From the NCBI GenBank assembly GCA_003564135.1, contig PWNZ01000174.1:1-56998 (forward strand): a stretch of 56,998 nucleotides of DNA, in the 5' to 3' direction. This document shows, in pieces, positions 18,591-48,135 of the stretch (its first letter is position 1; each line of letters starts with the position of its first letter). The notes beneath the pieces are model-generated. The model was not told where the DNA came from. It saw only the letters and a program-made list of their open reading frames with translations, and did no database searches. The stretch is from Candidatus Cloacimonadota bacterium (GTDB taxonomy: Bacteria > Cloacimonadota > Cloacimonadia > Cloacimonadales > PWNZ01). The translations under genes and the position numbers were made by a program.

Positions 18591-18660
18591 AGATATAGTT
18601 CATTGTAGTCTTTGTTTTATTATTAACTATCACCACTATGAAATAGTCTGATTAAGTAGG

Positions 18661-19629
18661 CTACAAATCCATCTGTTTTGCTTCTTTCCTCTTCTCAGCA
18701 AAGTAACCTACATTACCGACGATGATGAATATAATCATCATTAGATGAGCTGCCGTCTGGGAGTTCATACCTATACGTGCGGTTCTGAAAAGTATGGGAA
18801 CATCTTCATCTACGATTGAGACATGTTCACTTCTGGCTATATCTCTACTGAAGGGACGTCCTCTGGCAGCGAAAAGATCTACCATCTTTTCATACTCAGC
18901 AGCCCCTTTCAGGCCGCCTAAATGTCCAATTAGCTGGCCGGTTTGTAGGTATGGGTAGGTGTCGGGTGCAATAACCGCAGTGATACCTGAGGCAACATTA
19001 ACACCATACTGAGACCTTGCATACATGAACCAGGCCTGACCGAAGTCTGAACCTGAGAAATGAAGAACAAGATTCATTTGATCATAGTTTCTTATACCTT
19101 CCATCATCGGTAGGTCGGCGATGTTCCGACCTTCAGCGTCTGTCTCTAATGCCTCGGCAATATCATCTCCCATACCTAATATTATGGGTAAATAGAGTGC
19201 CGGTGGCTTAAAGCCGATATTTATATAATGAACACCGGAAACTATTTCAATATCGGGATGCTGCTGCTGGAGGTCTCTTTTGACGTTATCTATGGTCAAG
19301 TCAATCAGAGGAGCGGCGGTAGTGAATATTGTAAAGGTAAAGACCGGTACTCCCCGAAGGAATGCGTGCCTGAGTATCGCTACTTGCATCGGTCCTAGCT
19401 CCGGAAGAGTTGAAGCATCATGTTGGAAGTTCATAAGTATTGCCCGTCGCTCATCGCCTCTTTCGTTGATTTCGGCGAAGTTATCGATCATTTGGTATAT
19501 ATTTTCAGTAGTCTCTGTTGTATGTGTCGGCGAGTCATAAACAAAAACAAGCGGAATACCGACCGTCAGAGCTACAAGCAAATATATCCAACGTCTATCT
19601 AATTTTTGTATTCTCTCGAAAAAATTCAC
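18661..19629 (-). CDS. Hypothetical bitopic membrane protein (N- and C-terminal TM helices); fourth gene of the membrane operon
   Basis: 322 aa, GTG start with an AGGAG SD. TM helices are WIYLLVALTVGIPLVFV and AHLMMIIFIIVGNVGYF. I recognise no family. Confidence 0.75.
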   Translation of the reverse strand: MNFFERIQKLDRRWIYLLVALTVGIPLVFVYDSPTHTTETTENIYQMIDNFAEINERGDERRAILMNFQHDASTLPELGPMQVAILRHAFLRGVPVFTFTIFTTAAPLIDLTIDNVKRDLQQQHPDIEIVSGVHYINIGFKPPALYLPIILGMGDDIAEALETDAEGRNIADLPMMEGIRNYDQMNLVLHFSGSDFGQAWFMYARSQYGVNVASGITAVIAPDTYPYLQTGQLIGHLGGLKGAAEYEKMVDLFAARGRPFSRDIARSEHVSIVDEDVPILFRTARIGMNSQTAAHLMMIIFIIVGNVGYFAEKRKEAKQMDL

Positions 19630-19651
19630 GTAAAAACTCCTTTTTGTTTAT

Positions 19652-20251
19652 TTACTGGATTAGTCCTAACCAATCACCGACTAAGAATTGTATTCTTCCG
19701 ATTAGCAGGGATAGGCGGGCCATAACGGTGTATCCGAATGAAGCGCCGAAGCCTATCATCATATACCATACTCCTATACGGGTGAACGATTTATATGTGC
19801 CTTCATGAGCTTTAGAGAAGAAGAAGTAAAACAGAATAGTGACTGTACCCACGAAGATTACCACTAAATTAATGTTAGTTAATGGCAGCATTGATGATCT
19901 CATTTGTACTAATGTGTTAGCGTGGAGTGACATTGGAACTCCTAATCCTACCATACCCATACTAAACGTTATCGGGTAACGTGAAAGCCATGAAAGCTTG
20001 CTATGGAATCTGAATACAAACAAGAAACCAATGAGTGAAGGTATGATAATAATAAACTCATGCCTCAAAAATATCGGTGTGTAGACGTAAGGGATGAACA
20101 CATTATGGTAGACAATAGGTAACCCATATCCCACTGAAACGCCTATAAATAGGTGTTCGACAAAGCGATAGAAGGGGTTATCTTTATACAGGAAGGAGAA
20201 GATAGACAGTGTACAAAAAGCTGCCACCCAAGTTCCGATTACTTCAAACAT
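19652..20251 (-). CDS. Hypothetical polytopic membrane protein (about 6 TM); third gene of the membrane operon
   Basis: 199 aa and almost entirely hydrophobic. An AGGAGG SD is present. It lies 22 nt upstream of the next gene. Confidence 0.75.
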   Translation of the reverse strand: MFEVIGTWVAAFCTLSIFSFLYKDNPFYRFVEHLFIGVSVGYGLPIVYHNVFIPYVYTPIFLRHEFIIIIPSLIGFLFVFRFHSKLSWLSRYPITFSMGMVGLGVPMSLHANTLVQMRSSMLPLTNINLVVIFVGTVTILFYFFFSKAHEGTYKSFTRIGVWYMMIGFGASFGYTVMARLSLLIGRIQFLVGDWLGLIQ

Positions 20252-20353
20252 TGTTCCTCCTCATAGGACTACTATTGACACTAAAGATGCTGATATCATC
20301 TTTATTTGTGGAGATTATATTGATACGGTTATTTATGTTTTTTATCTTATTCA

Positions 20354-20983
20354 TTAGTCTGACCCCAAATATGTTCTTTCGATTCCTAAGAGTATGCGTA
20401 CAGATACGGACATGCCGCCTAATCCTACACCGATAAAAATCGCTCTGGTGGCAGCCATATTGGGGACGCTCAATATCCATTGTGAAATATCCGGTATCCA
20501 TCTGCTTATAGCCATCCCTAAAGGTACTTGAGCTATCATAACAATCACCGCTGCTACAAGTAGAACAGTAGCTTCGGCAGATCTTGCCCTAAATGCTTTG
20601 TAGGATGCTGATGCAATATAGAATGCTAAAAGCGAAAAGATAGTTGCACCGGTAGGGATCTGAATGTTTTCGAAGATCCACATATAGATTGTTCCAGCTT
20701 CTCTACCCCAGTAGAAACCAGCAAATGCGGTGAATACCAGGCCTATAAAGGTTACAACACTGAAATACCAGTTAGGAACTTTTCGCTTAATTCTTGTCCA
20801 GTGATTTTTGCTGAAACTCATGATACCTAAGAGAACAGCGAAAGGTGACATAGACCGTGACCAGGTCAGGAACCAATTTCGGTAGTCTTCGGCAATTCTA
20901 TGAGGAACAAATGCATACCCGACAAATAAGAAACCAAGCACGATAACTATTGCTAAGGGTAGCCGATTTTTTATTAATTTCAT
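20354..20983 (-). CDS. Hypothetical polytopic membrane protein (about 5 TM); second gene of the membrane operon
   Basis: 209 aa with an AGGAG SD. It lies 14 nt downstream of the 986-aa gene. Confidence 0.75.
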   Translation of the reverse strand: MKLIKNRLPLAIVIVLGFLFVGYAFVPHRIAEDYRNWFLTWSRSMSPFAVLLGIMSFSKNHWTRIKRKVPNWYFSVVTFIGLVFTAFAGFYWGREAGTIYMWIFENIQIPTGATIFSLLAFYIASASYKAFRARSAEATVLLVAAVIVMIAQVPLGMAISRWIPDISQWILSVPNMAATRAIFIGVGLGGMSVSVRILLGIERTYLGSD

Positions 20984-20997
20984 TATCTAACTCCTTT

Positions 20998-23958
20998 CTA
21001 TTGTTTCGGGAACAGGTTTATAAAGAATGTCAAATGGACGGTAGAGAGTATTGTTCCCGTGATTATGCAAGTTAGGATGAGGATTTTCATATAGTCGACT
21101 GCCTTTAATGTAGCCATTAGCATAGGTTCTCTACCTAAATAGGCGGCAGCTCCATAAAGCTCCTCACCGATTAATGTATAGTCACAAGTTGTGATAAAGA
21201 ATGGAACTTGGGTAATAGCGTCGGTTCCTGCTATCTGGATAGCACCTACAGTATTACCTACCTCAGTCATAATAAGTGCTTCTGCGTAATAAGCACCCAT
21301 GTAGAAGGCAGTTGCACATTTCTCTCTAACCATGATACCACTAACTCCAGCAACGAAAGCGAACTGTTGATTTGCCAGGAAGAAAACACTATTTTTGTCA
21401 AACGTGTCTGGTCTTCCGGCTTCGTAGTGTGCTTCCTTAACAATCTCTTGTGCTATAGGAGTAACAATAAAGTCCCTACAAGGCACGATAATGCGGGTAT
21501 CGTATTCAGCAGCTTTCTTTGCTACTCTGCTCAAAATAGCCAAACCGGCCAAGGTAGGCACACGGCTAATTCCATCAAGACCCGGATTGAAAAGTATCGG
21601 ACGTCCCATCTCTGTTGCTCGTCCAATCGCATTATCAATTTCTTCTATACCGGCTATAGGACGGATGTACATCTCTTTACCCTGTTTAGCTTTTCTAACC
21701 ATAATATAGACTAAGAAGCCAAATATCAGCGTAGCAAAAAGGGTTACGGTTCTTCCCGTATGAAACCAGTTACCTTTAGGGAAGAAATAGGTGTTGCCTT
21801 CTTCGTCTTGGTAAGGGTCAGTTTCTACAAATAAACCATGACCATCAGTCATGATCATCTTATACTGCATTGATCTCGATTCACGCTCTCGACGGCTGGC
21901 GATCATACGCATTCTTGCCTTGTCAGTGGACTGCTGATTAGCCTCAATCATAAACTCATGCTCATTATCAGTTATGAGCTGGTTATACTCGGCTTTGACT
22001 TGCTCTAATGTTGCTGAAATTTCGGCCAATTCCTCAGCAGATTCGGCTTGATTAATTTGTGAATTCAACTCATCTACTTTTGCTCTTTTAAGTTCAATAT
22101 CTCTTTCTACTAAAGAGTAAAAGAGGTGTGTGTTAACCGGACGCTTATTCTCTTTATCGTAAAAAGCATTGATTGTAGTATTGAAAAGTAAAAGCTGTTC
22201 TTCGGGATGAACATCAACTACCGGACGGAAAAAATTGCTCTTAAATCTAACTGCGTCTTCAGCTTCACGCATGATACCTGATATTCTGCTACTAAAGCTA
22301 TAGGTTTCTCCAGAGTATGGCTTCTTATAAAGCCTATAAAAGAAATTTTCGACAGGAGATCCCCTCAGGTTAAGGGAGCGAGGGCGATATGACATGTAGT
22401 TCTCATCGAAAGCTAACTGCTGTTCGAATACATAGTCTTCAGGTAATTCATTTCCGGATACTCGAAAATGCATCCTAAAGTTTATTGGCCGGTCTATTTG
22501 ATATTCAGGCGAATCCAATCCGTATTTATCGGGGAGAGTAACTCTGAAGAAGAGATTTTGATAGAACTCGTTAACAGTAGTTATTTTTTCCCATTCATCA
22601 TCATATATTTCGAAGTAAATATTGTTTACTGTATACTGCTCGTTTGTTTCAAATTCATAATTAACTAATAGCCTATTTCTATTTTGGTTTAAAAAAGACG
22701 TGTCCATCAGGATCACAGTCGGCTTATCCCAGTAAAGGATGTTGTGGTCTCCTTCACAGTTAGGCCTGTCTTTGACTACAAAATCAGGCTCTGGGGGGAG
22801 TGCTTCTGTGGTTGCTAATCTTATATCAGATGGCATACCATAGTTCTGTAAACCCCAGAAATTGCTGTATCCTTGCACTACATAGAAGTCATTAATGTCG
22901 TGCCTTCTTTGATCGAAAACTACATTGCCTTCAACATTTCTAAGTACACCATCTTCTAAGTCAATATAAGTAGTATTTTTCTGGGTGAAACCTTCAGAGT
23001 GAACTAATCTGGCCGGATTCTGAATAGTTGGCTCAAAAGGTTCCAAATCAGGGTCATCCATACGATCAATCCTGTTTTCTTCCGCCTTTTTAACTTGGTC
23101 TATATACTGCTCATACTGCCCTATATCGTTGTTGTGCAGCAAGAAAATGTTTGACGCAGCTATGCCTCCCGAAACAAAAGGCATAAGCCACTCAAATTGA
23201 AGACGTCCACTATCTTCCAAGTATACTGCATCTAATCTTCGCGGCATTTCCGGGTGGTTAATTCGTGGAATTCCAGCGACGGTTGGAGCATGTGGCATCA
23301 TCCTTCTTCTCTGGTCTACGGCCACTACCGTATAGTAGTATGTGTGATCTGCTTTCATTTGCAGCATAGTTTGTTGCAGTTGTCTATCCCTGAGACCTGC
23401 ATAGAACATACTATCTCCACCATCTTCTGAGGGAATTTCAATTTTTCTGGCATTATAGTATAATTGCTTCTTGGGGATAGATGCTAATATTGAATAATTA
23501 TCGAACTTATGTGCCGTAAGTTGTAAGTCTCTGGGTATACTCCGGTATAAAGGACTATCCTCAGGTTGGTTGTCCTCATGTCTTAAACCTCTTGGCGAGT
23601 TAACATTGGCCATTAAGTTATATCCGGTATCGTGATAAATAACTCTTTCACCCGGGAAACCGGTCTCAGGATTAATCTGGACATTCCCGATATAGAAAAG
23701 CTGATCTTCAGTACTACCGCGATAAACTCGATACTCAATTATTCTTGCCTCGGGATCTAAAGGTTTCCAACTGACCATAAGGCCGGTCCCTGTGTCGTTG
23801 GGAATATCTTCGACCCTTAAGTCTTCAACTATGAAATCTTGATAATCAGCTGGATCAAATCCGACCCTGGCAAGGCCTGTCAGTTGCGCCGAGATTAGCA
23901 CAACTAAGAAAAGCAGTGCAGAAACCCTGAACCACTTTATCCTATTTACTTTAGTCAT
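20998..23958 (-). CDS. Large hypothetical protein with a signal peptide, an extracytoplasmic region of about 700 aa (FN3-like modules and a coiled coil), and a 250-aa C-terminal domain bounded by two TM helices; first gene of the membrane operon
   Basis: 986 aa with an AGGAG SD. The signal sequence is FRVSALLFLVVLISAQLTG. The FN3-like block is GLMVSWKPLDPEARIIEYRVYRGS. The coiled coil is RDIELKRAKVDELNSQINQAESAEELAEISATLEQVKAEYNQL. TM helices are TVTLFATLIFGFLVYIMV and ILILTCIITGTILSTVHLTFFINLF. Confidence 0.8.
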   Translation of the reverse strand: MTKVNRIKWFRVSALLFLVVLISAQLTGLARVGFDPADYQDFIVEDLRVEDIPNDTGTGLMVSWKPLDPEARIIEYRVYRGSTEDQLFYIGNVQINPETGFPGERVIYHDTGYNLMANVNSPRGLRHEDNQPEDSPLYRSIPRDLQLTAHKFDNYSILASIPKKQLYYNARKIEIPSEDGGDSMFYAGLRDRQLQQTMLQMKADHTYYYTVVAVDQRRRMMPHAPTVAGIPRINHPEMPRRLDAVYLEDSGRLQFEWLMPFVSGGIAASNIFLLHNNDIGQYEQYIDQVKKAEENRIDRMDDPDLEPFEPTIQNPARLVHSEGFTQKNTTYIDLEDGVLRNVEGNVVFDQRRHDINDFYVVQGYSNFWGLQNYGMPSDIRLATTEALPPEPDFVVKDRPNCEGDHNILYWDKPTVILMDTSFLNQNRNRLLVNYEFETNEQYTVNNIYFEIYDDEWEKITTVNEFYQNLFFRVTLPDKYGLDSPEYQIDRPINFRMHFRVSGNELPEDYVFEQQLAFDENYMSYRPRSLNLRGSPVENFFYRLYKKPYSGETYSFSSRISGIMREAEDAVRFKSNFFRPVVDVHPEEQLLLFNTTINAFYDKENKRPVNTHLFYSLVERDIELKRAKVDELNSQINQAESAEELAEISATLEQVKAEYNQLITDNEHEFMIEANQQSTDKARMRMIASRRERESRSMQYKMIMTDGHGLFVETDPYQDEEGNTYFFPKGNWFHTGRTVTLFATLIFGFLVYIMVRKAKQGKEMYIRPIAGIEEIDNAIGRATEMGRPILFNPGLDGISRVPTLAGLAILSRVAKKAAEYDTRIIVPCRDFIVTPIAQEIVKEAHYEAGRPDTFDKNSVFFLANQQFAFVAGVSGIMVREKCATAFYMGAYYAEALIMTEVGNTVGAIQIAGTDAITQVPFFITTCDYTLIGEELYGAAAYLGREPMLMATLKAVDYMKILILTCIITGTILSTVHLTFFINLFPKQ

Positions 23959-24103
23959 AAAACAACTCCTTGATCAAGTTTGCTTTCTTATTTTGAACCC
24001 CTTCTCAGAAGGGTACTTTGTGTCAAGTCTTACGTTAATCAATTGCTTTGAATGCTTGTTTGATCTATTTGGTGTCAATATAAGTTGACTATTGATGCAA
24101 CAC

Positions 24104-25465
24104 TTATTCTGATGCCTGTGTCACACTCAATGGTAACGAAATACCCACTTCATCGTTGGGGGTATCAATTAAATAGTTAGCTCTTTCGACGATTTTTCTG
24201 AAGTCAGGCATAAGCTTCTCAGGTACCGGAGGCCCCGCTACATTCTCCATCTTGAGAGGGTCAATGGCTGTACCGTGATGATAAACGGTATAATGAAGGT
24301 GAGGACCTGTGGCCAAACCTGTTTGACCAACATAGCCTATAACCTGATTCTGCTCAACTCTGACACCTCTACTAATACCAGGCCCATAACCATTAAGGTG
24401 ACCGTATAAAGTTTCATAATTGTTATTATGTCTAATCATAACGGTCTTTCCATACCCGCCTTGTCGTCCGTTAACAGTTGGATGGCCTCCTTTCCAACCG
24501 CGATGAGAAACTATACCATCTGCGGAAGCTACAACCGGTGTTCCCATAGATGCAGCATAGTCAACACCATTATGAGGCCGGACAATTTTTAGAACTGGAT
24601 GATAACGCCCCTTGGAAAAACGAGATGTAATTCTGCTATAATTTAGTGGAGAACGCAAGAAGGCTCTTTGGAAAGACTCACCTTCACTGGTGAAATATTT
24701 TGCGTGGTCATCATCAATTTCAAAACGATAAGCACGTTTATCGTAGTTACGGCTTTCGTATTCAGCCACTATAATATTGCCATATTTCACAAACTCATCG
24801 CCTAACATGTATTGTTCATAAACTAAACAAAAGCGATCACCTTCACGGGGGTCAATCAAAAAATCTACATCCCATTGAAAGATCTCGGCAAATTTACCAA
24901 TAAGGTAAGGGCCTTCTCCGAATTCTCGCAAAGAAGAATACAATGATCCGGAAATTGTGCCTTCAGTTTTTCTTAGTACCATCTCAACCTGTAAGGTGTC
25001 AATTGACGGCACATAAAATCCTAAAGAGTCTAGGTATACGGAAAAGGATCTAATCCTTTCTCTTTGTGGATAATACGATAGTCGATGAATGACATCAAGA
25101 GTATCCATTTGCACATGAAAGCTGTCAGCAGGCATAAGCCGCCTTAGATCATATAACTTGTTCAGTTCATTAAGAACAGGCATAAACATGCTGTAACCAA
25201 CACCTCTTTCTTGCAGTGCTTGAGCCAATGTTTCTCTTTCTTGGAGAGATCCGGCAATATAGATGTAGGGATCTTTTTCCTCAATAATTTCGACAACATC
25301 ACTACTGCAGCCGTGAGAAAAGAGCATTAACGAAATCACAGCTATAATAGCTACTATTGACATAAAGTGAGCAGGACTAAAGCGTGTCTTACCTGTTTCA
25401 TAAATCCATTCAGCTTGAACTATGAAACTATCTTTTTTCTCTTCAAAACAATTGTTTAGTTCCAT
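24104..25465 (-). CDS. M23-family peptidoglycan metalloendopeptidase
   Basis: HNGVDYAA, GGYGKTVMIRHNNNYETLYGHL and GYVGQTGLATGPHLHY (HxxxD and HxH zinc motifs). There is an N-terminal membrane or lipobox-like anchor. ATG at 25465 follows a GAGGA SD. The ORF track begins one codon earlier at TTG. Confidence 0.9.
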   Translation of the reverse strand: MELNNCFEEKKDSFIVQAEWIYETGKTRFSPAHFMSIVAIIAVISLMLFSHGCSSDVVEIIEEKDPYIYIAGSLQERETLAQALQERGVGYSMFMPVLNELNKLYDLRRLMPADSFHVQMDTLDVIHRLSYYPQRERIRSFSVYLDSLGFYVPSIDTLQVEMVLRKTEGTISGSLYSSLREFGEGPYLIGKFAEIFQWDVDFLIDPREGDRFCLVYEQYMLGDEFVKYGNIIVAEYESRNYDKRAYRFEIDDDHAKYFTSEGESFQRAFLRSPLNYSRITSRFSKGRYHPVLKIVRPHNGVDYAASMGTPVVASADGIVSHRGWKGGHPTVNGRQGGYGKTVMIRHNNNYETLYGHLNGYGPGISRGVRVEQNQVIGYVGQTGLATGPHLHYTVYHHGTAIDPLKMENVAGPPVPEKLMPDFRKIVERANYLIDTPNDEVGISLPLSVTQASE

Positions 25466-25567
25466 CAATCCTCTGAGTTTATCTTATTATTTCAGGAAAA
25501 ATTTGAACTTTAGTGGTTATTTGTGTCAAATAAAAAAACGGCCAACTCATGATTTCTGCTGATAGGC

Positions 25568-25996
25568 TCAGTTCTCACGCAAAACTTCTGAAACTGTATA
25601 AATAGATCCGGTAACGACAATGACATCATCATCGAATGAATCTGCAACAGCTTGCCGGTAAGCATTAATTACTGATGAACATACAGAACAATTAATGCCG
25701 CTGCTGTGGACTATGTCAGCTTGCTGATGGGGATCCGCAGCCCTATCGGAGGTGTTTTTTGCAATATATATTCTTTTTGCAATACCACCCATTTCAGTAA
25801 TCATTTGATGAAAATTTTTGTCTCTGAGAATAGACACAACAAACACTAACTTTCTACATGGGTAGAGCAACTTGAGGTTTTCAACTAAGTTTTCAATTCC
25901 TTCCTCATTATGAGCACAGTCAAGAAAAGTCAAAGGTCGTTTATTAATAACCTGCATTCTTCCTAACCATCTTACCTGCTGAAGACCTCTCGACAT
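25568..25996 (-). CDS. folC: C-terminal segment of folylpolyglutamate/dihydrofolate synthase (after the in-frame TGA)
   Basis: WLGRMQVI...FLDCAHNEEG and VVTGSIYTVSEV are Mur-ligase C-terminal domain blocks. It is in frame with 26018-26890. Confidence 0.8.
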   Translation of the reverse strand: MSRGLQQVRWLGRMQVINKRPLTFLDCAHNEEGIENLVENLKLLYPCRKLVFVVSILRDKNFHQMITEMGGIAKRIYIAKNTSDRAADPHQQADIVHSSGINCSVCSSVINAYRQAVADSFDDDVIVVTGSIYTVSEVLREN

Positions 25997-26017
25997 GAAA
26001 CTGAGGTCAATATTTTC

Positions 26018-26890
26018 TCATAATTGTTGCTTGTATAAAGAATATGCGATCAAAGCTATGGCTGCATTTCTGGCTTGATGCTGACCAACAAGGTTTGTTT
26101 TTAATCTAAGCATTCTTTTTGGCAAAGGGATCCTATCTGAGTTAATCATTATATCGAAAATTGTTCCCGGGGTGTTTCTCAAGCTACTATTAGTGCTAAT
26201 TGCATCCGCTTCAAGGTTGATGTTCTCTACTTGGTAATCTTTTCCATAAATAAAAAGAGGCGCATTTTTTTTAATCGCTACTTCTGAGATGACCTTCAAA
26301 GCCTTGGGGTTGATTCTGCCTATCAAAATGGGGATATTTTCCTTAATAATTCCCGCTTTTTCAAAAGCGATCTTCTCAATAGTGTCACCTAGTGTTTTCT
26401 TATGGTCAAGTGATATAGAGGTGATCATTGTTACCGTAGAGTTAAAAGGATTTGTGCCGTCTAAACGTCCTCCTAAGCCAACTTCAAAAACGCTTGTATC
26501 GAGATTTTTCTCTTTAAACAAGTGAAACGCTAAAGCTGTTGTAATTTCAAAAAAAGAAGCTTGCCATTTTTCTAAAAGGGACTCCCATTTTTCATAAGCT
26601 GAAACTATCTCTTCAGTTGAGATATTCTGTCCGTTGATTCTAAATCTTTCCCGATAATCAAGTAGATGTGGTGAGGTATTGAGGCCACAAGTTTTCCCAT
26701 CTGCAAGGGCTATTGCTTCGCACATAGCAGCGGTAGAACCTTTGCCGTTTGTCCCAGCCACATGGAATCCATTTAGAAAGCATTGAGGATTGCCCATGTC
26801 GCCTAACAGGTTAACAATCCTGTCCAGACCATAGCTAACATTTCCGGAGAAACGGGTGTATATTGAGCCTAAAAGATCTTTATATTCCAA
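26018..26890 (-). CDS. folC: N-terminal segment of folylpolyglutamate/dihydrofolate synthase, ending at an in-frame TGA
   Basis: P-loop VAGTNGKGST, plus EVGLGGRLD, ITSISLDH, FEKAGIIK and GQHQARNAA. The start is TTG with no clear SD. Confidence 0.85.
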   Translation of the reverse strand: MEYKDLLGSIYTRFSGNVSYGLDRIVNLLGDMGNPQCFLNGFHVAGTNGKGSTAAMCEAIALADGKTCGLNTSPHLLDYRERFRINGQNISTEEIVSAYEKWESLLEKWQASFFEITTALAFHLFKEKNLDTSVFEVGLGGRLDGTNPFNSTVTMITSISLDHKKTLGDTIEKIAFEKAGIIKENIPILIGRINPKALKVISEVAIKKNAPLFIYGKDYQVENINLEADAISTNSSLRNTPGTIFDIMINSDRIPLPKRMLRLKTNLVGQHQARNAAIALIAYSLYKQQL

Positions 26891-37725: not shown

Positions 37726-39615
37726 CTATTTTATTAGCAGCATTTTTTTGACTTGCTCAAATTCTCCTGCTATTAATCTGTAGAAAAACAATCCCGAACC
37801 GACTATATTGCCATTAGCATCCTTTCCGTTCCATCTAATGCTGTGATTACCTGCCGCTAGGTTATTGTCCATGAGTGTAATAACTCTTCTTCCTCTACTG
37901 TTATAAATAATGAGTGAAACTTCTGCTTCTTCAGCAAGACTGAAGCTGATGTTAGTGTTGGGATTAAAAGGATTAGGGTAGTTTTGGTCAAGTCTGGTAA
38001 GTCTTGGCGTTGAGAGATAATCTACGCTTGTATCGGTTTCTGTTGTAAAAGACCAGACAGGATTATCTTCCGCATCGCCCATGTTTATTAACGCTTTCTG
38101 CTGTTCTCTTCTTGTATGGTTATCAGCCCTTTCTTCTAAGTGTTTTGTTGTAGGCACCACCATCCAATAATAAGCTGTATCGTGGTCTAAAGGAGAATAG
38201 CTCCCGATAGTTAAAGAATAGTGGATTGTTTCCTTATCATAATCAACCCAATAAAAGTTTTCTGGTTCATTAAAATGATCATAAGTACTGAAATATATCC
38301 TAAACCCTTTAGGAGGCGTGAAACCTTCTTCGTGAATATAGTTCCAGAAAAGGGTGTCAATCTTTACCAGTACGTTAGCCATCTCATGCTTAGGATAAGG
38401 ATCAGAAGCGACGTTCGGATATGGTTTGATAACAGGGATCTGCCATTTGAGCACCGGATATCCATCATTATAGAGATTGTCGGGATCAAAGCTCCAAATT
38501 TCTTCGAAATCCCACTCAGAAAAAGTGTTCTCATCATAGGGATAAGTCATCTGGATTGTTGTCCTTCCTTCACCGCCCGGAGAGGTTTCCTTTTGTGAAG
38601 CTTCAACATCCCAATAGCTTCTCAATATTCTGCCCGAGAAGAGATGTCCCATCAAGCCTCCGACATTATTTACACCGTTTACTTTGCCAGTAGAGAAGCT
38701 GTTTTGAACGGTGCCATCAGTATTCACGCCAACTAGCCCGCCTACAGCATTCTCTCCATCGACATTCCCTCTGGCGTAACTGTCATAGATGAAAGCGTTA
38801 TCATTTTTCCCGACTAATCCACCTGTGTCGTATGTACCTTTAACATTTCCTGTAGCAAAGCTGTTTGTAATGTAGGTGCCATTTCTCAGACCGGCAAGAC
38901 CGCCGGTGTTATTCAGTCCGCACCCACCAAAGGTGTAGTTGTTGCCAACTAAACCTCCAATCTGGTAAATACCAGTGACATCAGCACTGCTGCTTGATTT
39001 ATTAATTGTAGTTTCTGTGCTTCCTCCTACTAGTCCGCCGATATCTGTTTGACCGGTCACGGTGCCGGAAGCATGACTTTTGTCTATAGTTGACCACATA
39101 ACTAATCCTGTTAAGCCTCCTGCATAATAATTGGTCCCTTTGACTTTACCCTCAACAGTACAGTTTACTACTATACTATAATCGGTATTGCCGACTAAAC
39201 CGCCAACGTTGTAAGATCCTTTTACATTCACACTTGTCAGGTTGATGTTTTTCAGTTCTGCATCATGAATAAAACCGAAAAGACCTACAGACCTTTGCTC
39301 TTGACGATCGATATACAGGCTCTCTATAAGATAACCATCTCCATCAAAAGACCCGTAGAAAGGTCTACCGATATTGCCTATTGGCTCCCAACCATCTCCG
39401 GTGTTGAATGGTTCAATATCCAAAGAGATATCACCTCTTTGGCGAAAATATGAATTAGGATATTCCCGGACAAGGTCTATATCGTCAGGATTTGATACTA
39501 TAAAAGGATCATAATCAATTCCTCGCCCACCAGAAAACTGGGCTGAAAGATTTGATCCTGTAATCACAAGTAAGACACTTATTAATGCCACTATCAGAAT
39601 ATATCTGTTGCTCAT
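37726..39615 (-). CDS. Secreted GLUG-motif repeat protein with a T9SS C-terminal sorting domain
   Basis: Signal peptide present. At least 10 GGLVG/GGLTG (GLUG-type) repeats. The CTD is NYPNPFNPNTNISFSL...GLFFYRLIAGEFEQVKKMLLIK. A GGAGG SD is present. Confidence 0.88.
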   Translation of the reverse strand: MSNRYILIVALISVLLVITGSNLSAQFSGGRGIDYDPFIVSNPDDIDLVREYPNSYFRQRGDISLDIEPFNTGDGWEPIGNIGRPFYGSFDGDGYLIESLYIDRQEQRSVGLFGFIHDAELKNINLTSVNVKGSYNVGGLVGNTDYSIVVNCTVEGKVKGTNYYAGGLTGLVMWSTIDKSHASGTVTGQTDIGGLVGGSTETTINKSSSSADVTGIYQIGGLVGNNYTFGGCGLNNTGGLAGLRNGTYITNSFATGNVKGTYDTGGLVGKNDNAFIYDSYARGNVDGENAVGGLVGVNTDGTVQNSFSTGKVNGVNNVGGLMGHLFSGRILRSYWDVEASQKETSPGGEGRTTIQMTYPYDENTFSEWDFEEIWSFDPDNLYNDGYPVLKWQIPVIKPYPNVASDPYPKHEMANVLVKIDTLFWNYIHEEGFTPPKGFRIYFSTYDHFNEPENFYWVDYDKETIHYSLTIGSYSPLDHDTAYYWMVVPTTKHLEERADNHTRREQQKALINMGDAEDNPVWSFTTETDTSVDYLSTPRLTRLDQNYPNPFNPNTNISFSLAEEAEVSLIIYNSRGRRVITLMDNNLAAGNHSIRWNGKDANGNIVGSGLFFYRLIAGEFEQVKKMLLIK

Positions 39616-40481: not shown

Positions 40482-43208
40482 ATGAAAATCGATAAGACAT
40501 ATAGCCCTTCTGATATCGAGCAGAAATGGTATCAATATTGGGAAGACAATCGGTACTTTACTCCTCCTGAGAAAATAGACAAGGCTAAAAAACCCTTCAC
40601 AGTACTGATGCCTCCACCGAACGTGACAGGCATATTACATGTAGGTCACGTTTTGAATAATACTTTGCAAGACATAGCCGTTCGCTACAAGAGAATGACA
40701 GGAGCTCCGACTTTATGGATACCGGGAATGGATCATGCCGGCATAGCGACTCAAAACGTTGTAGAGAAGGATTTAGCGAAGGAAGGGATTGATCGGCACA
40801 GCATAGGTCGGGAAAAATTAGTTGAGAAGATTTGGAAGTGGAAAGACCAGAAAGGTGGGAAAATTGTCGAGCAATTGAGACTTTTAGGTGCTTCTTGCGA
40901 TTGGACACGTGAAAGGTTCACTCTAGATAAAGGGCTCTCCCGTGCAGTGAAAGAGGTTTTCGTAGACCTCTATGAAAAGGGATTAATTTATCAGGGAGAG
41001 TATATAATTAATTGGTGCCCCAGATGTATTAGCGCACTTTCTAACGATGAGGTTGATCACTACGATGAAGTGGGCAAATTATGGTATATCCGCTATCCTA
41101 TTGATAAGGAGAATGGAGAATCAACTAGAACAGATGTGCCTGACTATCTCACGATAGCTACTACCCGTCCGGAAACTATGTTGGGCGACGTAGCGGTAGC
41201 GGTTAACCCTGATGATCCGCGCTATTCACAATTAGCGGATAAAAGAGTTATCCTGCCTTACACGAACCGTAAAATACCGATTATATTAGATGATTATGTT
41301 GATAAAGACTTTGGAACAGGTGTTGTTAAAATCACTCCGGCTCATGACCCCAATGATTTTGAAGTAGGACGACGTCATAAACTTTCTCCTATAGTTGTTA
41401 TGGATGAACAGGGTCGAATGAACGAGGCAGCAGGCGAAATATTTGCCGGTATGGACAGATTTGAATGTAGAACGAAGCTCATTAAAATGCTTGGTGATGA
41501 CGATTTGATAGACAAGATAACTGATCATGATCTTTCTTTAGGAAAGTGTTATCGCTGTGATAGTGTAGTAGAACCTTATCTTTCCAAGCAGTGGTTTGTT
41601 AAAATGAAGCCTCTCAGCGAAAGAGCCATCCAAGCGGTTGAAAACGGTGAAATAACTTTGCAACCGGAAAGGTGGAAAAAAGTGTTCATGCATTGGATGA
41701 ATAATATCCGCGATTGGTGTATATCAAGACAGATTTGGTGGGGGCATCGAATACCGGTCTATTATTGCTCTGATTGTGACCGGATAATGGTTAAGGTCGA
41801 AGCGCCAGAATTATGTCCAGCGTGCAATAGCCGCAATATTAGGCAAGACGAAGATGTGCTGGATACTTGGTTCTCATCATGGTTGTGGCCGTTCTCCACG
41901 ATGGGCTGGCCTGAAAAGACTAAAGATATAGAATATTATCTGCCGACTAACCTATTGGTGACAGCCCCCGAGATCATTTATCTCTGGGTTGCCAGAATGA
42001 TAATGGCTACTTATGAGTTCTGCGATAGCAAACCATTTGATACTGTATTACTGCATGGTACTGTTCGTGATGAAATAGGTCGTAAAATGAGTAAGTCGTT
42101 AGGTAATTCCCCAGATCCGATAAACATTATAGAACAGGTCGGTGCGGATGCTCTAAGATTCAGCATGGTGTTCAATGCACCTAAAGGGGCAGATATTTAT
42201 TATTCCGAAGCTGTGTTGGAAAATGGCCGCAATTTCTGCAATAAGATATGGAACGCCTATCGTTACATCATGACTAATGCTGCTGATATTTGCTCTAATG
42301 ATGACAAATGTATCCCCCAATCAACAGAACCGATCACCATGACAGAATTAGCCGATCGCTGGATCTATAGCCGGTTAAATCAAGTTATCAAACAGGTAGT
42401 GGATTATTATGAAGATCTTAGATACAATGATGCAGCACAACTGCTGCAAGAGTTTATCTGGAAAGAGTTTTGCTCATGGTACTTGGAGCTGACCAAGCCG
42501 AGAGTTTATGCTAAAAAAGAGGAAAGTGATGATTCCTTGCAAATACAACGACAGGTTATTGCTATCCTCTTGGATGTGCTGCAAAAATCAATGAAGCTCC
42601 TACATCCGATCATGCCATTTATCACTGAAGAAATTTGGCAAGGTGTGCAACAAGTCCGTCCAACTGACGAAGAAGCACTGATCATCAGCCGGCTACCTCA
42701 GTTTCAATCCGAAAAGACTGACAACGATATTGATGAGCAGATGAATCTGATTCAAAACAGTGTGACGGCAATCAGAAATCTGCGAAAGCAGGTTAATATA
42801 CCACCAGGTACGGAGGTTTCCGTGCTGATTCGTGTTTCCTCACAGGAAAGAGCCGCTGTAATCAACAAAAGTTATAAGTATTTTAATAAGTTAGCTAAGG
42901 TTTCTGACTTGCAAGTAGGGGTTGCTATATCCAAGCCTAAGGGATCAATCGCATCAGTCATAGGAGACTTAGAGGTATATTTAAAGCTTAGCGGTGTTAT
43001 TGATGTCGAGAAGGAAAAACAGAGGTTGAATAAAATATTAGTGAAAACCGGCAAAGAACTGGAAAGAGCTGCTAAAAAGCTTGCTAATCCAAACTTTTTG
43101 ACCAAAGCCAAAGAAGATGTCGTTGAAAAAGAACGAGTTAAAAAAGAGGAAATGCAATTAACATTTGACAAAACTAAACAACTTTTAAATGATATCCAAA
43201 ACCTATAA
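40482..43208 (+). CDS. valS: Valyl-tRNA synthetase
   Basis: The HIGH-type motif is PNVTGILHVGH and the KMSKS motif is present. The editing domain and C-terminal coiled coil are present. A GGAG SD is present. Confidence 0.97.
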   Translation: MKIDKTYSPSDIEQKWYQYWEDNRYFTPPEKIDKAKKPFTVLMPPPNVTGILHVGHVLNNTLQDIAVRYKRMTGAPTLWIPGMDHAGIATQNVVEKDLAKEGIDRHSIGREKLVEKIWKWKDQKGGKIVEQLRLLGASCDWTRERFTLDKGLSRAVKEVFVDLYEKGLIYQGEYIINWCPRCISALSNDEVDHYDEVGKLWYIRYPIDKENGESTRTDVPDYLTIATTRPETMLGDVAVAVNPDDPRYSQLADKRVILPYTNRKIPIILDDYVDKDFGTGVVKITPAHDPNDFEVGRRHKLSPIVVMDEQGRMNEAAGEIFAGMDRFECRTKLIKMLGDDDLIDKITDHDLSLGKCYRCDSVVEPYLSKQWFVKMKPLSERAIQAVENGEITLQPERWKKVFMHWMNNIRDWCISRQIWWGHRIPVYYCSDCDRIMVKVEAPELCPACNSRNIRQDEDVLDTWFSSWLWPFSTMGWPEKTKDIEYYLPTNLLVTAPEIIYLWVARMIMATYEFCDSKPFDTVLLHGTVRDEIGRKMSKSLGNSPDPINIIEQVGADALRFSMVFNAPKGADIYYSEAVLENGRNFCNKIWNAYRYIMTNAADICSNDDKCIPQSTEPITMTELADRWIYSRLNQVIKQVVDYYEDLRYNDAAQLLQEFIWKEFCSWYLELTKPRVYAKKEESDDSLQIQRQVIAILLDVLQKSMKLLHPIMPFITEEIWQGVQQVRPTDEEALIISRLPQFQSEKTDNDIDEQMNLIQNSVTAIRNLRKQVNIPPGTEVSVLIRVSSQERAAVINKSYKYFNKLAKVSDLQVGVAISKPKGSIASVIGDLEVYLKLSGVIDVEKEKQRLNKILVKTGKELERAAKKLANPNFLTKAKEDVVEKERVKKEEMQLTFDKTKQLLNDIQNL

Positions 43209-43220
43209 AGGAGGCTGGTG

Positions 43221-43772
43221 ATGACTACCAATCACAAGGAAAAGGAAATGATTATAGATCCTGATGTAACTGGTGATGTTGACTTTGAACAGCTGGAAAA
43301 AGTCAAAGAACATATTGCTAAAGACGAAAAGAAAAGGTTTCTCTTCTACGAAAAACTGAGAACTAAATTAGCAGACAAAGCACCGAAAACCAGTGTTATG
43401 AACAAGGTGACAGACTATCTTTTTCTGCTTCCGGATTTTTTTATGTTGCTCTGCCGGTTGATGGTTGATGACCGGGTGGAGAACAAGACTAAGGGGTTTA
43501 TATTAGGTGTTATCGGGTATGTTATTCTGCCTATAGATATTATACCTGACTTCATTCCCGTGATAGGGTTTGTTGATGACCTGATAATCGTGGCTTATGC
43601 ACTGGATCAGATTCTCAAGTATACTGACGAACAGATTTTGATTGATAATTGGAGCGGTAAAGCCGATTTAATCCTATCCATTAGAAAAATCATCGCCGTT
43701 GTGGACAGCGCCGTAGGCCAAAAAATCATCATGAAGATCAAATGTTTTTTATTTAAAAATAAACAAAGATAA
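43221..43772 (+). CDS. DUF1232 (YkvA-family) membrane protein
   Basis: LPIDIIPDFIPVIGFVDDL is the signature of DUF1232. ATG 43221 lies 6 nt after GGAGG. The ORF track opens at GTG 43218. Confidence 0.8.
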   Translation: MTTNHKEKEMIIDPDVTGDVDFEQLEKVKEHIAKDEKKRFLFYEKLRTKLADKAPKTSVMNKVTDYLFLLPDFFMLLCRLMVDDRVENKTKGFILGVIGYVILPIDIIPDFIPVIGFVDDLIIVAYALDQILKYTDEQILIDNWSGKADLILSIRKIIAVVDSAVGQKIIMKIKCFLFKNKQR

Positions 43773-43793
43773 TCTTTACGAGTTGGAGGGATA

Positions 43794-44417
43794 TTGAAAG
43801 CGATAATTTCATCCCGGAACCAAGACAAAATTCGGGAGATCAAGAAAATATTATCGGATCTCGACTTGCAGTTACTTTCTGCTAATGAATATGCAGATTT
43901 GCCCGATGTCATCGAGGATCAGGAGACGTTGCTTGGCAACGCCATTAAAAAGGCAAAGGAAATCGCAAAGCTAACAGGGATGGCTACAATATCCGATGAT
44001 ACCGGTCTTTTTGTAGAAGGCTTGAACGGAGCACCTGGCGTTAGATCGGCTCGATATGCCGGTGATGATTGCTCTTATAGTAAAAATAGAGAAAAGGTCT
44101 TATCCCGCATGCAGGGTATAGAAAATCGAAAAGCTGCTTTTCGCACCGTCGTTGTTATGGCTTTACCTGACAGTGGTTACACCTATGCCGAGGGAGTTTT
44201 AGAAGGAATCATTACCGATCATGAAACAGGGAATCAAGGTTTCGGGTATGACTCAATATTCATGATCCCCGAAAAAGGGAAAACCCTAGCTGAGATGTCC
44301 TCAGAAGAAAAAAACAGTATCAGCCATAGAGGTAAAGCGTTTAGAAAATTGGCTGACCAAATCAAAATACTCCTAAGTGGAGAAGCTGAAACAACTTTTA
44401 AAGATGCTAAAGTCTAG
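43794..44417 (+). CDS. rdgB: Non-canonical purine NTP pyrophosphatase (RdgB/HAM1)
   Basis: SRNQDKIRE, TLLGNAIKKA, SDDTGLFVEGLNGAPGVRSARY, GFGYDSIF and SHRGKA. The start is TTG preceded by GGAGGG. Confidence 0.9.
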   Translation: MKAIISSRNQDKIREIKKILSDLDLQLLSANEYADLPDVIEDQETLLGNAIKKAKEIAKLTGMATISDDTGLFVEGLNGAPGVRSARYAGDDCSYSKNREKVLSRMQGIENRKAAFRTVVVMALPDSGYTYAEGVLEGIITDHETGNQGFGYDSIFMIPEKGKTLAEMSSEEKNSISHRGKAFRKLADQIKILLSGEAETTFKDAKV

Positions 44418-44491
44418 TTGTTGCAGCATATAAAACCTTTCACTCGGGAGGTTTGACTAAGCTATAATCTAAAGTAAAAGGAGATGACGAA

Positions 44492-45844
44492 ATGAAAGTT
44501 AATAAGCTAATTTTTAGAGAATATGATGTCAGAGGGGTAGTAGATAAGGATTTAACCGATGAAACAGTATATCTCTTAGGCAGAGCTTTTGCACGTTTCT
44601 TAAACAAAAGGGGCTTGAAAACAGTAGCGATAGGTGGTGATGCAAGGATCAGTACACCCAGATTTAAGGACCGGTTCTCTCAGGGACTTATCGATAGTGG
44701 TTGTCAAGTTCATGATGTTGGAATATTGGCTACACCGACACTATATTTTTCGATCCAACATCTAAAAGTCGATGCAGGTGTAATGATCACCGGCAGCCAC
44801 AACCCACCCGAGTTTAACGGCTTCAAAATGAATGTAGGTTTAGGAAGTATTTATGGGAAGGATATCCAGGAAATATACGAGAGTATCGTTAATGAAGACT
44901 TTGTCGACGGTAAAGGTAAGGTGAAAGTTGTTGAGGGGATGGTGAAAATCTACCAAGACTATATCGTCGATAATATTGATTTAGCAAGGCCGGTTAAGGT
45001 TGTTATTGATGCCGGTAATGGAGTTGGAGGACCTATCCTCCCGGACATATTGAGAAGAGTCGGCTGTGAGGTTACAGAGCTTTATTGTGATATGGACGGC
45101 AACTTCCCTAACCATCATCCGGATCCAACAGTCGTTGAATACATGCAGGACTTGATTAAAACAGTTTGGGATAGTAAAAGTGAATTAGGAATAGGACTTG
45201 ATGGAGATGCTGATCGTTTGGGAGTCATTGATGAGAATGGTAAGATGTTGTTCGGTGATCAGGTATTGAACATCTTTGCTCGTGAATTCTTAGAGAACTA
45301 TCCGGGAGAGAAGGTTATAGCAGACGTAAAATGCTCAAAAAACCTATTCGATGATATCAAAGAACAAGGCGGCGTACCTATTATGTATAAAACCGGTCAT
45401 TCTCTTATCAAAAAGAAAATGAAAGAGGATAATATAAAGTTTGGCGGTGAAATGAGTGGCCATGTATTTTTCTACGATCGCTACTTCGGATATGATGATG
45501 CAATTTATGCAGCATGCAGGTTTGCAGAAATAGTTTCTAAGTCAAAAGCTAGAGTCAGTCAGATGCTGACCGGACAGCCTAAGATGTTCAACACACCGGA
45601 GATCAGAGTCGATTGTCCGGACGAAAAGAAATTCACCTTAGTCGAAAATATTAAAAAGCAACTTATTAGAGAGGGATTTGAAGTTAATGACATTGACGGT
45701 GTGAGAGTCACCTTCCCGGATGGCTGGGGTTTAGTTAGAGCATCAAATACTCAACCAGTTTTGGTAATGAGATTCGAAGCTCAAACAGAGAAGAGGCTCA
45801 AAGAGATTAGAGACTTAGTAGAAAACACAATGTTCCTTTTCTGA
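44492..45844 (+). CDS. Alpha-D-phosphohexomutase (phosphomannomutase/phosphoglucomutase type)
   Basis: Phosphoserine loop TGSHNPPEFNGFK, metal loop GLDGDADR, sugar loop GGEMSGH and phosphate-binding RASNTQP. Confidence 0.9.
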   Translation: MKVNKLIFREYDVRGVVDKDLTDETVYLLGRAFARFLNKRGLKTVAIGGDARISTPRFKDRFSQGLIDSGCQVHDVGILATPTLYFSIQHLKVDAGVMITGSHNPPEFNGFKMNVGLGSIYGKDIQEIYESIVNEDFVDGKGKVKVVEGMVKIYQDYIVDNIDLARPVKVVIDAGNGVGGPILPDILRRVGCEVTELYCDMDGNFPNHHPDPTVVEYMQDLIKTVWDSKSELGIGLDGDADRLGVIDENGKMLFGDQVLNIFAREFLENYPGEKVIADVKCSKNLFDDIKEQGGVPIMYKTGHSLIKKKMKEDNIKFGGEMSGHVFFYDRYFGYDDAIYAACRFAEIVSKSKARVSQMLTGQPKMFNTPEIRVDCPDEKKFTLVENIKKQLIREGFEVNDIDGVRVTFPDGWGLVRASNTQPVLVMRFEAQTEKRLKEIRDLVENTMFLF

Positions 45845-45885
45845 TAATAAATTTTCAATAATATTAAACTGATGATGGGGAAACC

Positions 45886-47187: not shown

Positions 47188-47215
47188 AAAACTAGTTAAC
47201 AAATAGGAGGAATTA

Positions 47216-47995
47216 ATGGAGTATCAGTGGTACTACCCGGTAGCAGTAGTTGTCTTCTTGTTCTTGATTTCAGCAATTAAAGTTGTTAGAGAGTATGAGC
47301 GATTAGTAGTTTTCAGACTTGGAAGATTAACCAATGAAAAAGGTCCCGGATTAGTTATCGTCATTCCGATAATTGATAAGCTCATCAGAATACCCCTAAG
47401 AATAGTGACGCTCGATGTGCCCGCTCAAGAAGTGATTACCCGGGATAACGTAACTGCAAGTATTAATGCAGTTATTTATTATAAAGTAGTTGAGTCGAGT
47501 AAAGCGGTTGTAAACGTAGAAAATTACCGTTATGCTACAGCTCAACTTGCCCAAACCACATTACGTAGTATTGCCGGACAAGCAGATCTTGATGAAATAC
47601 TTTCAGAAAGAGATAAGCTTAATGTGCAAGTACAGACAATATTAGACGAGGCGACCGATCCCTGGGGAATAAAGGTCACAGCAGTTGAGATTAAAGATGT
47701 GGGGATTCCCGAAAGCCTGCAAAAGGCAATATCCAAACAAGCAACAGCAGAAAGAGAAAGAAGAGCAGTAATAGTTCAGGCTGAAGGTGAGAAGCAGGCT
47801 GCAGAAAAGCTTTCCCAAGCTGCCAAAATACTTAACGCTGAAGAAGGTGCTCTTTTTGTCAGAACTTTAAGAACGCTTTCGGAGATATCCGGGAAGCAGG
47901 GGTCTATCTTTGCCTTCCCTTTCCCGGTTGAGCTTAAAAACTTTTTCCCGAGTGCAGTGCAAAGGGATTTGAAAGATAGTGATAAACCGTCTTAG
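47216..47995 (+). CDS. SPFH/Band-7 (stomatin-like) protein
   Basis: N-terminal TM helix, then VREYERLVVFRLGR and the prohibitin-homology domain. An AGGAGG SD is present. The pairing with nfeD is classical. Confidence 0.93.
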   Translation: MEYQWYYPVAVVVFLFLISAIKVVREYERLVVFRLGRLTNEKGPGLVIVIPIIDKLIRIPLRIVTLDVPAQEVITRDNVTASINAVIYYKVVESSKAVVNVENYRYATAQLAQTTLRSIAGQADLDEILSERDKLNVQVQTILDEATDPWGIKVTAVEIKDVGIPESLQKAISKQATAERERRAVIVQAEGEKQAAEKLSQAAKILNAEEGALFVRTLRTLSEISGKQGSIFAFPFPVELKNFFPSAVQRDLKDSDKPS

Positions 47996-48135
47996 ATCTG
48001 AGCACCCTTAAAAAAAGATTGACAAAAATCAAACTGTAGCATCGAGGTTATACTATGTTGTTATCGACTATAGTATAGGACTATAATGAAAAATAAAAAA
48101 AAGACAAAACAAGAAACTAACTGGAGGTTAGAATT

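Follow-up and report, generated by a model that had tools for sequence, protein, structure and literature searches.

The subject of this analysis is a group of four consecutive genes, here called A to D, on the minus strand of contig PWNZ01000174.1 from a Candidatus Cloacimonadota bacterium (uncultured; 56,998 nucleotides, which we refer to as the window); an earlier note on this DNA had described them as a compact membrane operon without recognised function. The list of open reading frames (ORFs) and the sequences ahead of the start codons bear out the layout given there, with four minus-strand genes separated by gaps of 14 nt (A to B), 102 nt (B to C) and 22 nt (C to D) and a good Shine-Dalgarno (SD) sequence in front of each:

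20998-23958, minus strand: gene A, ORF call of 986 aa, ATG start, SD AAGGAG
20354-20983, minus strand: gene B, ORF call of 209 aa, ATG start, SD AGGAG
20252-20353, minus strand: spacer of 102 nt between B and C, unusually long for a cassette of this kind
19652-20251, minus strand: gene C, ORF call of 199 aa, ATG start, SD GGAGG
18661-19629, minus strand: gene D, ORF call of 322 aa, GTG start, SD AGGAG

Each of the four proteins has hundreds to thousands of homologues, which places all of them far beyond chance ORFs. The set, which we call the DUF6754 cassette, is present in at least 12, mostly uncultured, bacterial phyla: a scan of species-representative genomes gave at least 597 matching stretches, the best 80 loci of which belong to Cloacimonadota, Zixibacteria, WOR-3, Stahlbacteria, Coatesbacteria, Aegiribacteria, Eisenbacteria, Edwardsbacteria, Ignavibacteria, Poribacteria, Latescibacterota, CSSED10-310 and one Brocadiaceae bin. 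ORFs were called in 86 loci and searched with iterated hidden Markov models of the four window proteins. The four families were found on one strand and in the order A-B-D-C in every locus with enough sequence, with 97 complete cassettes, 107 pairs in which a B homologue follows A, median gaps of 11 nt (A to B), 1 nt (B to D) and 2 nt (D to C), and more than 100 adjacent gene pairs with gaps near zero. The co-localisation on which the earlier note had let its proposal depend holds across these 86 loci and at least 12 phyla, although with A-B-D-C as the canonical order rather than the A-B-C-D of the window. As this co-localisation is so wide, it argues strongly that A to D act together, and it is near-certain that they constitute one functional module.

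Tandem arrays of two or three complete A-B-D-C cassettes occur in Zixibacteria, Ignavibacteria and others (loci L004, L026, L030, L045, L052, L060, L062, L073 and others). Clustering of the concatenated subunits revealed that whole cassettes were duplicated and not single genes, and paralogue types are common to Zixibacteria and Ignavibacteria, so that either the duplication is ancient or cassettes were transferred between those two phyla. In Cloacimonadota the usual layout is A1 (~1000 aa)-B-D-C-A2 (~940 aa), and A of the window is an orthologue of the upstream copy A1. The arrangement A-B-C-D without A2 occurs only in the window and in its two closest relatives, L087 (D 95% identical to that of the window) and L088 (D 81% identical):

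window 18661-20353: C and D in swapped order
L087 3900-6221: C and D in swapped order
L088 6672-8963: C and D in swapped order

The state seen in the window is a derived one, in which C and D were swapped and A2 was lost, and the 102-nt spacer between B and C is probably the scar of this swap. In L088 (3703-6657) two products, of 200 aa and 673 aa, stand in place of the giant A, which indicates a frameshift or a pseudogene.

Gene A encodes the largest subunit and the only one with a family membership that holds. Hydropathy agrees with the earlier description of a signal peptide, about 700 aa outside the membrane and a domain held between two transmembrane helices, and this domain is DUF6754 (PF20539) of Pfam (371.1 bits against a gathering cut-off of 27, E 2.9e-111, model positions 2-256 of 257). 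The parts of A are as follows:

23869-23925, minus strand: A aa 12-30, N-terminal hydrophobic helix, signal peptide or anchor (hydropathy 2.21, four Lys/Arg ahead of it)
21754-23868, minus strand: A aa 31-735, ectodomain of ~705 aa with about three beta modules resembling fibronectin type III (FN3) domains and a helical, coiled-coil-like stalk
21859-22146, minus strand: A ~aa 605-700, coiled-coil-like helical stretch adjoining the membrane
21013-21777, minus strand: A aa 728-982, DUF6754 with transmembrane helix 736-754, a helix, six beta/alpha units and transmembrane helix 953-971

No lipobox Cys is visible in the sequence of A. The FN3-like modules and coiled coil that the earlier note had read into the ectodomain find weak support: sequence patterns of FN3 type occur at about aa 42-230, 240-375 and 388-520, the match to fn3 (PF00041) covers only aa 54-84 and stays at 15.4 bits (gathering cut-off 25; E 0.022), and a heptad heuristic is positive at ~aa 611-646, a stretch without Pro or Gly, with the stalk giving weak matches to coiled-coil families and M protein. 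Among homologues of A, P0006 has a precomputed PF00041 match, and two short ones (P0103 and P0113) bear the NCBI name 'fibronectin type III domain-containing protein', a Pfam scan of these two finding no fn3 at E<=0.01. A BLAST self-comparison of the A ectodomain revealed no internal repeats. Full-length A has 58 homologues, all those with a source name being from Cloacimonadota, whilst for DUF6754 by itself the homologues make up more than 7,000 clusters (90% identity), and every relative of A found contains this domain. Outside Cloacimonadota, A is typically only ~380-440 aa long and consists of signal peptide, small ectodomain (about 100-130 aa in most phyla), transmembrane helix, DUF6754 and a second transmembrane helix; the N-terminal module of the window protein aligns with the single ectodomain of these short forms. 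The ectodomain of ~700 aa is a Cloacimonadota speciality, and its location is more likely periplasmic. Of the earlier picture of a dedicated envelope machine with a giant, surface-exposed subunit, what stands is the dedicated and conserved cassette, but not the surface exposure.

The domain itself is highly conserved: DUF6754 sequences of Cloacimonadota and of other phyla are 51-60% identical, with 62 of 274 columns invariant. The AlphaFold2 model (33-sequence alignment; predicted local distance difference test (pLDDT) 81.5, predicted template modelling score (pTM) 0.70) exhibits a transmembrane helix, a helix, six consecutive beta/alpha units and a second transmembrane helix, the two membrane helices being separated by 198 aa according to hydropathy. 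The invariant residues T90, D117, Q153, E181, D201 and E220/E221 (274-aa domain numbering) stand directly after strands beta1 to beta6 in this model, with an invariant GRATEMG motif ahead of beta1. In Rossmann-like folds the C-terminal strand edge is the usual ligand site, and the many carboxylates at this edge of the model suggest that the ligand may be a cation or a metal-phosphoryl group. Lys and Arg number seven on the DUF6754 side of both transmembrane helices versus one or two on the other side; given these flanks and the signal helix of A, DUF6754 is predicted to be cytoplasmic.

B and C are small polytopic proteins for which the earlier counts of about five and about six transmembrane helices were roughly right: hydropathy gives six hydrophobic segments for B and six, possibly seven, for C. 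The loops of B carry charge biases of, in order, +1.8/-1.2/+3.5/-0.4/+3.1/-0.6, and loops 0, 2 and 4 are rich in Lys/Arg and fixed in length whilst the remaining ones vary; B is therefore predicted to span the membrane six times with both termini inside. In case of C it is loops 1, 3 and 5 that are Lys/Arg-rich and fixed in length, loops 2 and 4 being variable, which predicts an N-terminus outside and hence an orientation inverted relative to B. Identities among homologues amount to 39-60% for B (39-47% between phyla) and 38-69% for C (38-51% between phyla). Three arginines are invariant in B (Arg132, Arg180 and Arg203) and two in C (Arg179 and Arg186), the latter both within the last hydrophobic stretch. 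The acidic residues E32 of C and E202 of B are located at helix ends or in loops; the alignments of B and C contain no invariant Cys, and no cofactor motif was recognised in them or in D.

Hydropathy places the transmembrane helices of D at aa 15-33 and 286-304, in agreement with the earlier reading of one helix at each end, and the AlphaFold2 model (40-sequence alignment; pLDDT 87.1, pTM 0.84) again comprises transmembrane helix, helix, six beta/alpha units and transmembrane helix. The models of D and DUF6754 display the same order of secondary-structure elements, a likeness that is architectural only. Upstream of the first membrane helix lies a DRR motif with invariant R12 (D11 and R13 in at least 90% of sequences), a cluster of Arg/Lys follows the second, and the domain between them has a mean net charge of -7.6: taken together, these features lead to a predicted periplasmic location of the D domain. 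Invariant residues of the second helix are His295 and Asn306. D proteins of different phyla are 29-40% identical, and a profile search returned 2,413 clusters at 50% identity at E<=1e-3, 1,396 of these at E<=1e-10. Some relatives (P0345, P0443, P0213) contain large insertions, either CARDB or HEAT repeats at one fixed point after alpha2, or PDZ before the second membrane helix; the CARDB and PDZ insertions fit an extracytoplasmic adaptor face. D was also considered as a polysaccharide co-polymerase of Wzz type, with which it shares the plan of two membrane helices; this was rejected, as there is no Pfam match and the model presents a six-unit beta/alpha domain, and none of the 50 best Foldseek matches listed is a co-polymerase structure.

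The cassette fits no known kind of system. Searches against Pfam and NCBIfam at E<=1 gave no credible match for B, C or D and no ATPase, transporter, type IX secretion system (T9SS), gliding, Tol or Mot family in any of the four proteins, as the earlier note had supposed from the absence of recognisable motifs. Scans of the individual members of the B, C and D alignments with Pfam yielded scattered hydrophobic noise only, profile searches of the A, B, C and D families against the sequences in the PDB were empty or noise, and PADLOC found no match for A to D at E<=0.1, so that a role as a defence system was rejected. A literature search found no paper mentioning DUF6754 or PF20539 and nothing relevant on these phyla with FN3. 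DUF6754 is a single domain whose Pfam entry covers neither B, C and D nor the cassette and carries no functional information; the cassette is still a good candidate for an undescribed membrane machine, as the earlier note had proposed, with one part of it, DUF6754, already in Pfam.

The structural comparison with Foldseek, performed with the DUF6754 and D models against the PDB, led in the same direction, with generic Rossmann matches and no confident assignment to a known complex. For DUF6754 no match had an E-value below 1e-3 (best 1.1e-3), the nearest neighbours being SIS domains (MurQ, RpiR, MurR, GmhA), Sir2, the RCK domain of MthK, halves of GT-B enzymes and a molybdenum cofactor (Moco) carrier protein, with template modelling scores (TM-scores) of 0.25-0.49. 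For D no specific neighbour emerged (best E 6.6e-3); 6y01 (Moco-carrier/LOG-like) is among its matches, as it is for DUF6754. SIS proteins (MurQ, GmhA, RpiR/MurR), RCK/KTN domains (MthK) and 6y01 resemble the cassette domains in their three-layer alpha/beta/alpha build and in a ligand site at the C-terminal strand ends; however, E-values are at least 1.1e-3, identities are 8-16% and none of them is flanked on both sides by transmembrane helices, leaving a resemblance of fold class only. An assignment to the SIS/RCK type was tied to E below 1e-3, TM-score above 0.5 and the binding motif of the family in question, and the values observed were E 1.1e-3 (DUF6754) and 6.6e-3 (D) with TM-scores of 0.2-0.49.

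With respect to layout, the closest known systems are Na+-NQR and Rnf. These contain two oppositely oriented six-helix subunits of ~200 aa (NqrD-NqrE, RnfA-RnfE), a membrane-anchored periplasmic alpha/beta subunit (NqrC/RnfG) and a membrane-anchored cytoplasmic subunit of Rossmann type, with NqrF and NqrA as further members. The cassette shares with them the paired six-helix subunits of opposite orientation and an alpha/beta domain on each face, and a 375-aa neighbour of the cassette in some phyla has a faint NqrA_N/RnfC_N match. In contrast, A to D show no Pfam match to Rnf-Nqr (PF02508), FMN_bind or NQR2_RnfD_RnfE at E<=1, B and C are without the invariant Cys of an Fe-S centre, D is without a flavinylation motif of SGAT type, and no flavin, NADH or Fe-S domains occur anywhere in the cassette: the resemblance is one of layout and not of membership. 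A further likeness exists to synthase-translocons of the type of BcsA-BcsB, where BcsA has a cytoplasmic alpha/beta domain between transmembrane helices and its partner combines periplasmic flavodoxin-like and Ig-like modules with a membrane anchor, as the cassette also pairs an inserted cytoplasmic alpha/beta domain with a modular, membrane-anchored periplasmic partner. DUF6754 differs in consisting of six consecutive beta/alpha units in the model, not GT-A-like in appearance, and the cassette exhibits neither a GT2 or BcsB match (Pfam, Foldseek) nor a motif of D,D,D,QxxRW type. GldK/L/M/N, SprA/E/T, PorU/V and the C-terminal sorting domain of T9SS and gliding systems are missing from A to D, as are the defining families of ABC, ECF and TRAP/TTT transporters.

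Among the clustered ORFs flanking the cassette, only one association reaches across phyla: a MutL-type (PF13941, actin/Hsp70-like) ATPase of ~600 aa together with its 375-aa partner. In 11 loci of several phyla both adjoin the cassette and share its strand, and they may be an add-on that energises or regulates it. Examples, others being known, are:

L005 11695-14445: MutL-type ATPase/partner
L006 1943-4693: MutL-type ATPase/partner
L046 3626-6609: MutL-type ATPase/partner
L089 6138-9939: MutL-type ATPase/partner
L091 3930-6701: MutL-type ATPase/partner

The partner gives a faint barrel-sandwich match (NqrA_N/RnfC_N/biotin-lipoyl), in some loci the two proteins are fused (~916 aa), and two small membrane proteins are sometimes found ahead of them; neither ATPase nor partner matched a sequence in the PDB. 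No genes for ABC ATPases, EcfT/S, DctQ/M, TctA/B or substrate-binding proteins recur beside the cassette in the 86 loci. In Cloacimonadota, the same-strand neighbours include psd and an M23 peptidase, both of which represent lineage-specific synteny. A search of Rfam with positions 17000-25600 of the window and 10 diverse cassette loci gave no match near the operon at E<=1 and hence no clue to a substrate from a riboswitch or leader. PPDK was considered as a partner and rejected as synteny, since it lies downstream only in the lineage with triple cassettes, at gaps of 0.5-1.5 kb, and elsewhere on the opposite strand.

Based on these results, A to D appear to be subunits of one conserved inner-membrane complex, whose formation we infer from the cassette. 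Our tentative proposal, possible though short of probable, is that of a translocation device whose core consists of two inverted halves, translocation itself being part of the proposal. B (six helices, N-terminus inside) and C (six or seven helices, N-terminus outside) would form a core of inverted topology with about 12 helices. D would contribute a Rossmann-like alpha/beta domain between two transmembrane helices at the periplasmic face, and A the near-invariant, Rossmann-like DUF6754 between two transmembrane helices at the cytoplasmic face as well as its ectodomain of FN3 type. The device could then act in the manner of a transporter, flippase or exporter, the polar helices of B, C and D providing a path through the membrane for which His295 and Asn306 of D, Arg179 and Arg186 of C and Arg180 of B are candidate residues. 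The C-terminal edge of the DUF6754 sheet, lined with carboxylates, may bind a ligand that is phosphorylated or metal-bound and that gates or drives the process, and the variable periplasmic modules (A ectodomain and D) might receive or deliver cargo. Support for this proposal comes from the opposite orientation predicted for B and C, polar residues within the helices, the expansion of paralogues and the pattern of conservation inside and variability outside, the periplasmic parts varying freely versus 51-60% identity of the cytoplasmic domain. A more far-reaching version, which we regard as somewhat unlikely, is that of an ancient and so far unrecognised class of inner-membrane machine in phyla of FCB type and their neighbours, built from two inverted half-modules that each combine a bitopic subunit (Rossmann-like domain between two transmembrane helices) with a six-helix subunit, A+B with the Rossmann-like domain inside and D+C with it outside, matching the gene order A-B, D-C; it would constitute a new superfamily of transporters or energy-coupling systems, driven in some lineages by the MutL-type ATPase. 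The two inverted halves would here be an architectural inference and not a demonstrated duplication.

Several observations weigh against the translocation proposal. No homology to transporter, flippase or channel families was found for A to D, and neither the ORFs flanking the 86 loci nor riboswitches (Rfam) offer any clue to a substrate. The orientation of all four proteins follows from the positive-inside rule and hydropathy only, and in C the final hydrophobic stretch, itself rich in Lys/Arg, is ambiguous. Homology of B to C was rejected (hhalign probability 0.8%), as was a remote relationship of D to DUF6754 (below 2%, also when the settings were relaxed), and with no sequence homology within either pair the picture of two inverted halves is architectural only. 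Neither the window nor any of the Cloacimonadota loci contains the MutL-type ATPase or its partner; for this reason the pair is a lead to a possible energiser and not part of the finding. Finally, conservation as high as that of DUF6754 would be no less expected of a catalytic enzyme than of a domain that gates.

This last point leads to the alternative of a membrane-bound enzyme complex of envelope biogenesis, in which DUF6754 would be catalytic (acting for example on a phosphosugar, a nucleotide-sugar or a lipid-linked precursor) and B, C and D would hold the lipid or pass the product to the periplasm. The 62 invariant columns, with several carboxylates at the ligand edge, look like an active site, and SIS domains (MurQ, MurR, RpiR, GmhA) and GT-B halves (MurG, BshA, WaaG) recur among the weak Foldseek matches; psd and the M23 peptidase as same-strand neighbours in Cloacimonadota point the same way. 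However, all of these matches have E-values above 1e-3 and TM-scores of ~0.3-0.45, which corresponds to generic Rossmann resemblance, no known catalytic motif was recognised, the two neighbours reflect lineage-specific synteny, and a biosynthetic enzyme would less usually be encoded by two or three divergent cassettes in tandem per genome, so that we consider such an enzyme unlikely. Still lower, and distinctly improbable in our estimate, is an ion-driven motor or trans-envelope tether like ExbBD-TonB, TolQRA or GldLM, with ion flow moving periplasmic parts of A and D that reach the wall or outer membrane. Like ExbB-ExbD-TonB, TolQ-TolR-TolA, MotAB and GldL-GldM, the cassette is a small, ATPase-free inner-membrane set with bitopic subunits projecting into the periplasm of diderm hosts; its conserved membrane core with highly variable periplasmic adaptor parts, the long stalk of the Cloacimonadota A with a coiled-coil-like segment by the membrane and a distribution centred on diderm phyla of FCB type that use T9SS would all suit a motor. 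Against this, no MotA/ExbB/TolQ, ExbD/TolR, TonB or GldL/M family passed the cut-off (the only trace being exbB, TIGR02797, E 0.37, on the coiled-coil part of A), and B, C and D have no invariant Asp or Glu inside a transmembrane helix. Subunit sizes and helix numbers differ as well, the cytoplasmic Rossmann domain has no counterpart in those motors, and the A ectodomain of ~100-130 aa in most phyla is too short for spanning the periplasm.

Variability outside with conservation inside is also the pattern of a receptor, and RCK regulatory domains, which are Rossmann-like, are among the weak fold matches; A to D could on these grounds be a transmembrane sensor or signalling complex, in which periplasmic modules sense a cue and DUF6754 relays it to a conserved partner. 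We attach only a slight probability to this, as no kinase, cyclase, helix-turn-helix or other output domain was found, no regulator gene recurs beside the cassette, the twelve additional transmembrane helices would be superfluous for signalling, and signalling domains are not usually as conserved between phyla as DUF6754 is (51-60% identity). Lastly, A to D might be mere neighbours without joint function, or some of the ORFs might not be genes: neither homology nor fusion between any pairing (B-C, A-D or others) proves contact between the proteins. This explanation is scarcely credible when order and strand are the same throughout the 97 complete cassettes, more than 100 adjacent pairs have near-zero gaps, cassettes were co-duplicated across phyla, and every ORF combines a strong SD with deep conservation.

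Irrespective of function, the cassette is widespread, ancient and strongly conserved and not a local oddity. If A to D indeed form one complex, poorly known phyla carry an unstudied, highly conserved four-subunit membrane complex, many genomes with two or three copies, and the cross-phylum identity of its cytoplasmic domain (51-60%) is typical of core cell machinery. Its function, once known, would annotate thousands of 'hypothetical' membrane proteins and fill a gap in the envelope physiology of uncultured groups that are abundant in digesters, sediments and sponges, and it might reveal a new architecture for movement across membranes, the combination of a Rossmann-like domain on each face with two oppositely oriented six-helix subunits being unusual in itself. 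Better fold searches might yet link the cassette to a known superfamily.

Downstream of D, the operon had been thought to end at a perfect 10-bp hairpin. The hairpin is real and longer than this, but it is not a canonical terminator:

18560-18591, minus strand: hairpin between D and psd, perfect stem of 12-13 bp (TATGGGAGGATA / TATCCTCCCATA), loop CGCTGT
17553-18557, minus strand: psd (phosphatidylserine decarboxylase), Pfam PS_Dcarbxylase E 2.9e-53, downstream neighbour on the same strand

The hairpin lacks a T-run, is not among the terminators called by the scan and stops 3 nt ahead of the TTG listed as psd start, and is for these reasons not clearly a terminator. Its arms contain GGGAGGA (5') and TCCTCCC (3'), such that an SD-like element is paired with an anti-SD-like one at the listed start of psd, and judged from these letters the hairpin could govern translation of psd instead of ending the operon. 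The psd gene also follows the cassette in L001, L007, L011, L015, L020 and L087; as this synteny is confined to Cloacimonadota, psd was rejected as a member of the module.

Elsewhere in the window, a second paralogous system at 40482-51054 was considered and rejected, the genes there encoding valyl-tRNA synthetase, DUF1232, Ham1, PGM, NfeD, SPFH and a T9SS cargo protein. Three large proteins, a GLUG-motif protein (37726-39615), an InhA-like/MAM protein (48136-51054) and a subtilase with beta-propeller (51443-54817), all carry T9SS C-terminal sorting domains (Por_Secre_tail), which indicates that the organism uses type IX secretion. At 25568-26890 (minus strand), a folC-like Mur-ligase gene is split by a single in-frame TGA (26018-26020) into ORFs of 290 aa with Mur_ligase_M and 142 aa with Mur_ligase_C; this interruption could represent a pseudogene, a sequencing error or read-through. 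An alanine racemase at 15302-17239 has a C-terminal extension of ~275 aa without Pfam match, and L087 has the same form of 643 aa. A gingipain-like C25 peptidase fused to a Porphyromonas-type peptidylarginine deiminase (9053-13603, minus strand) is divided by an in-frame TAA (12131-12133) into ORFs of 490 aa and 1016 aa, and in the relative L087 the same fusion is a single product of 1515 aa.

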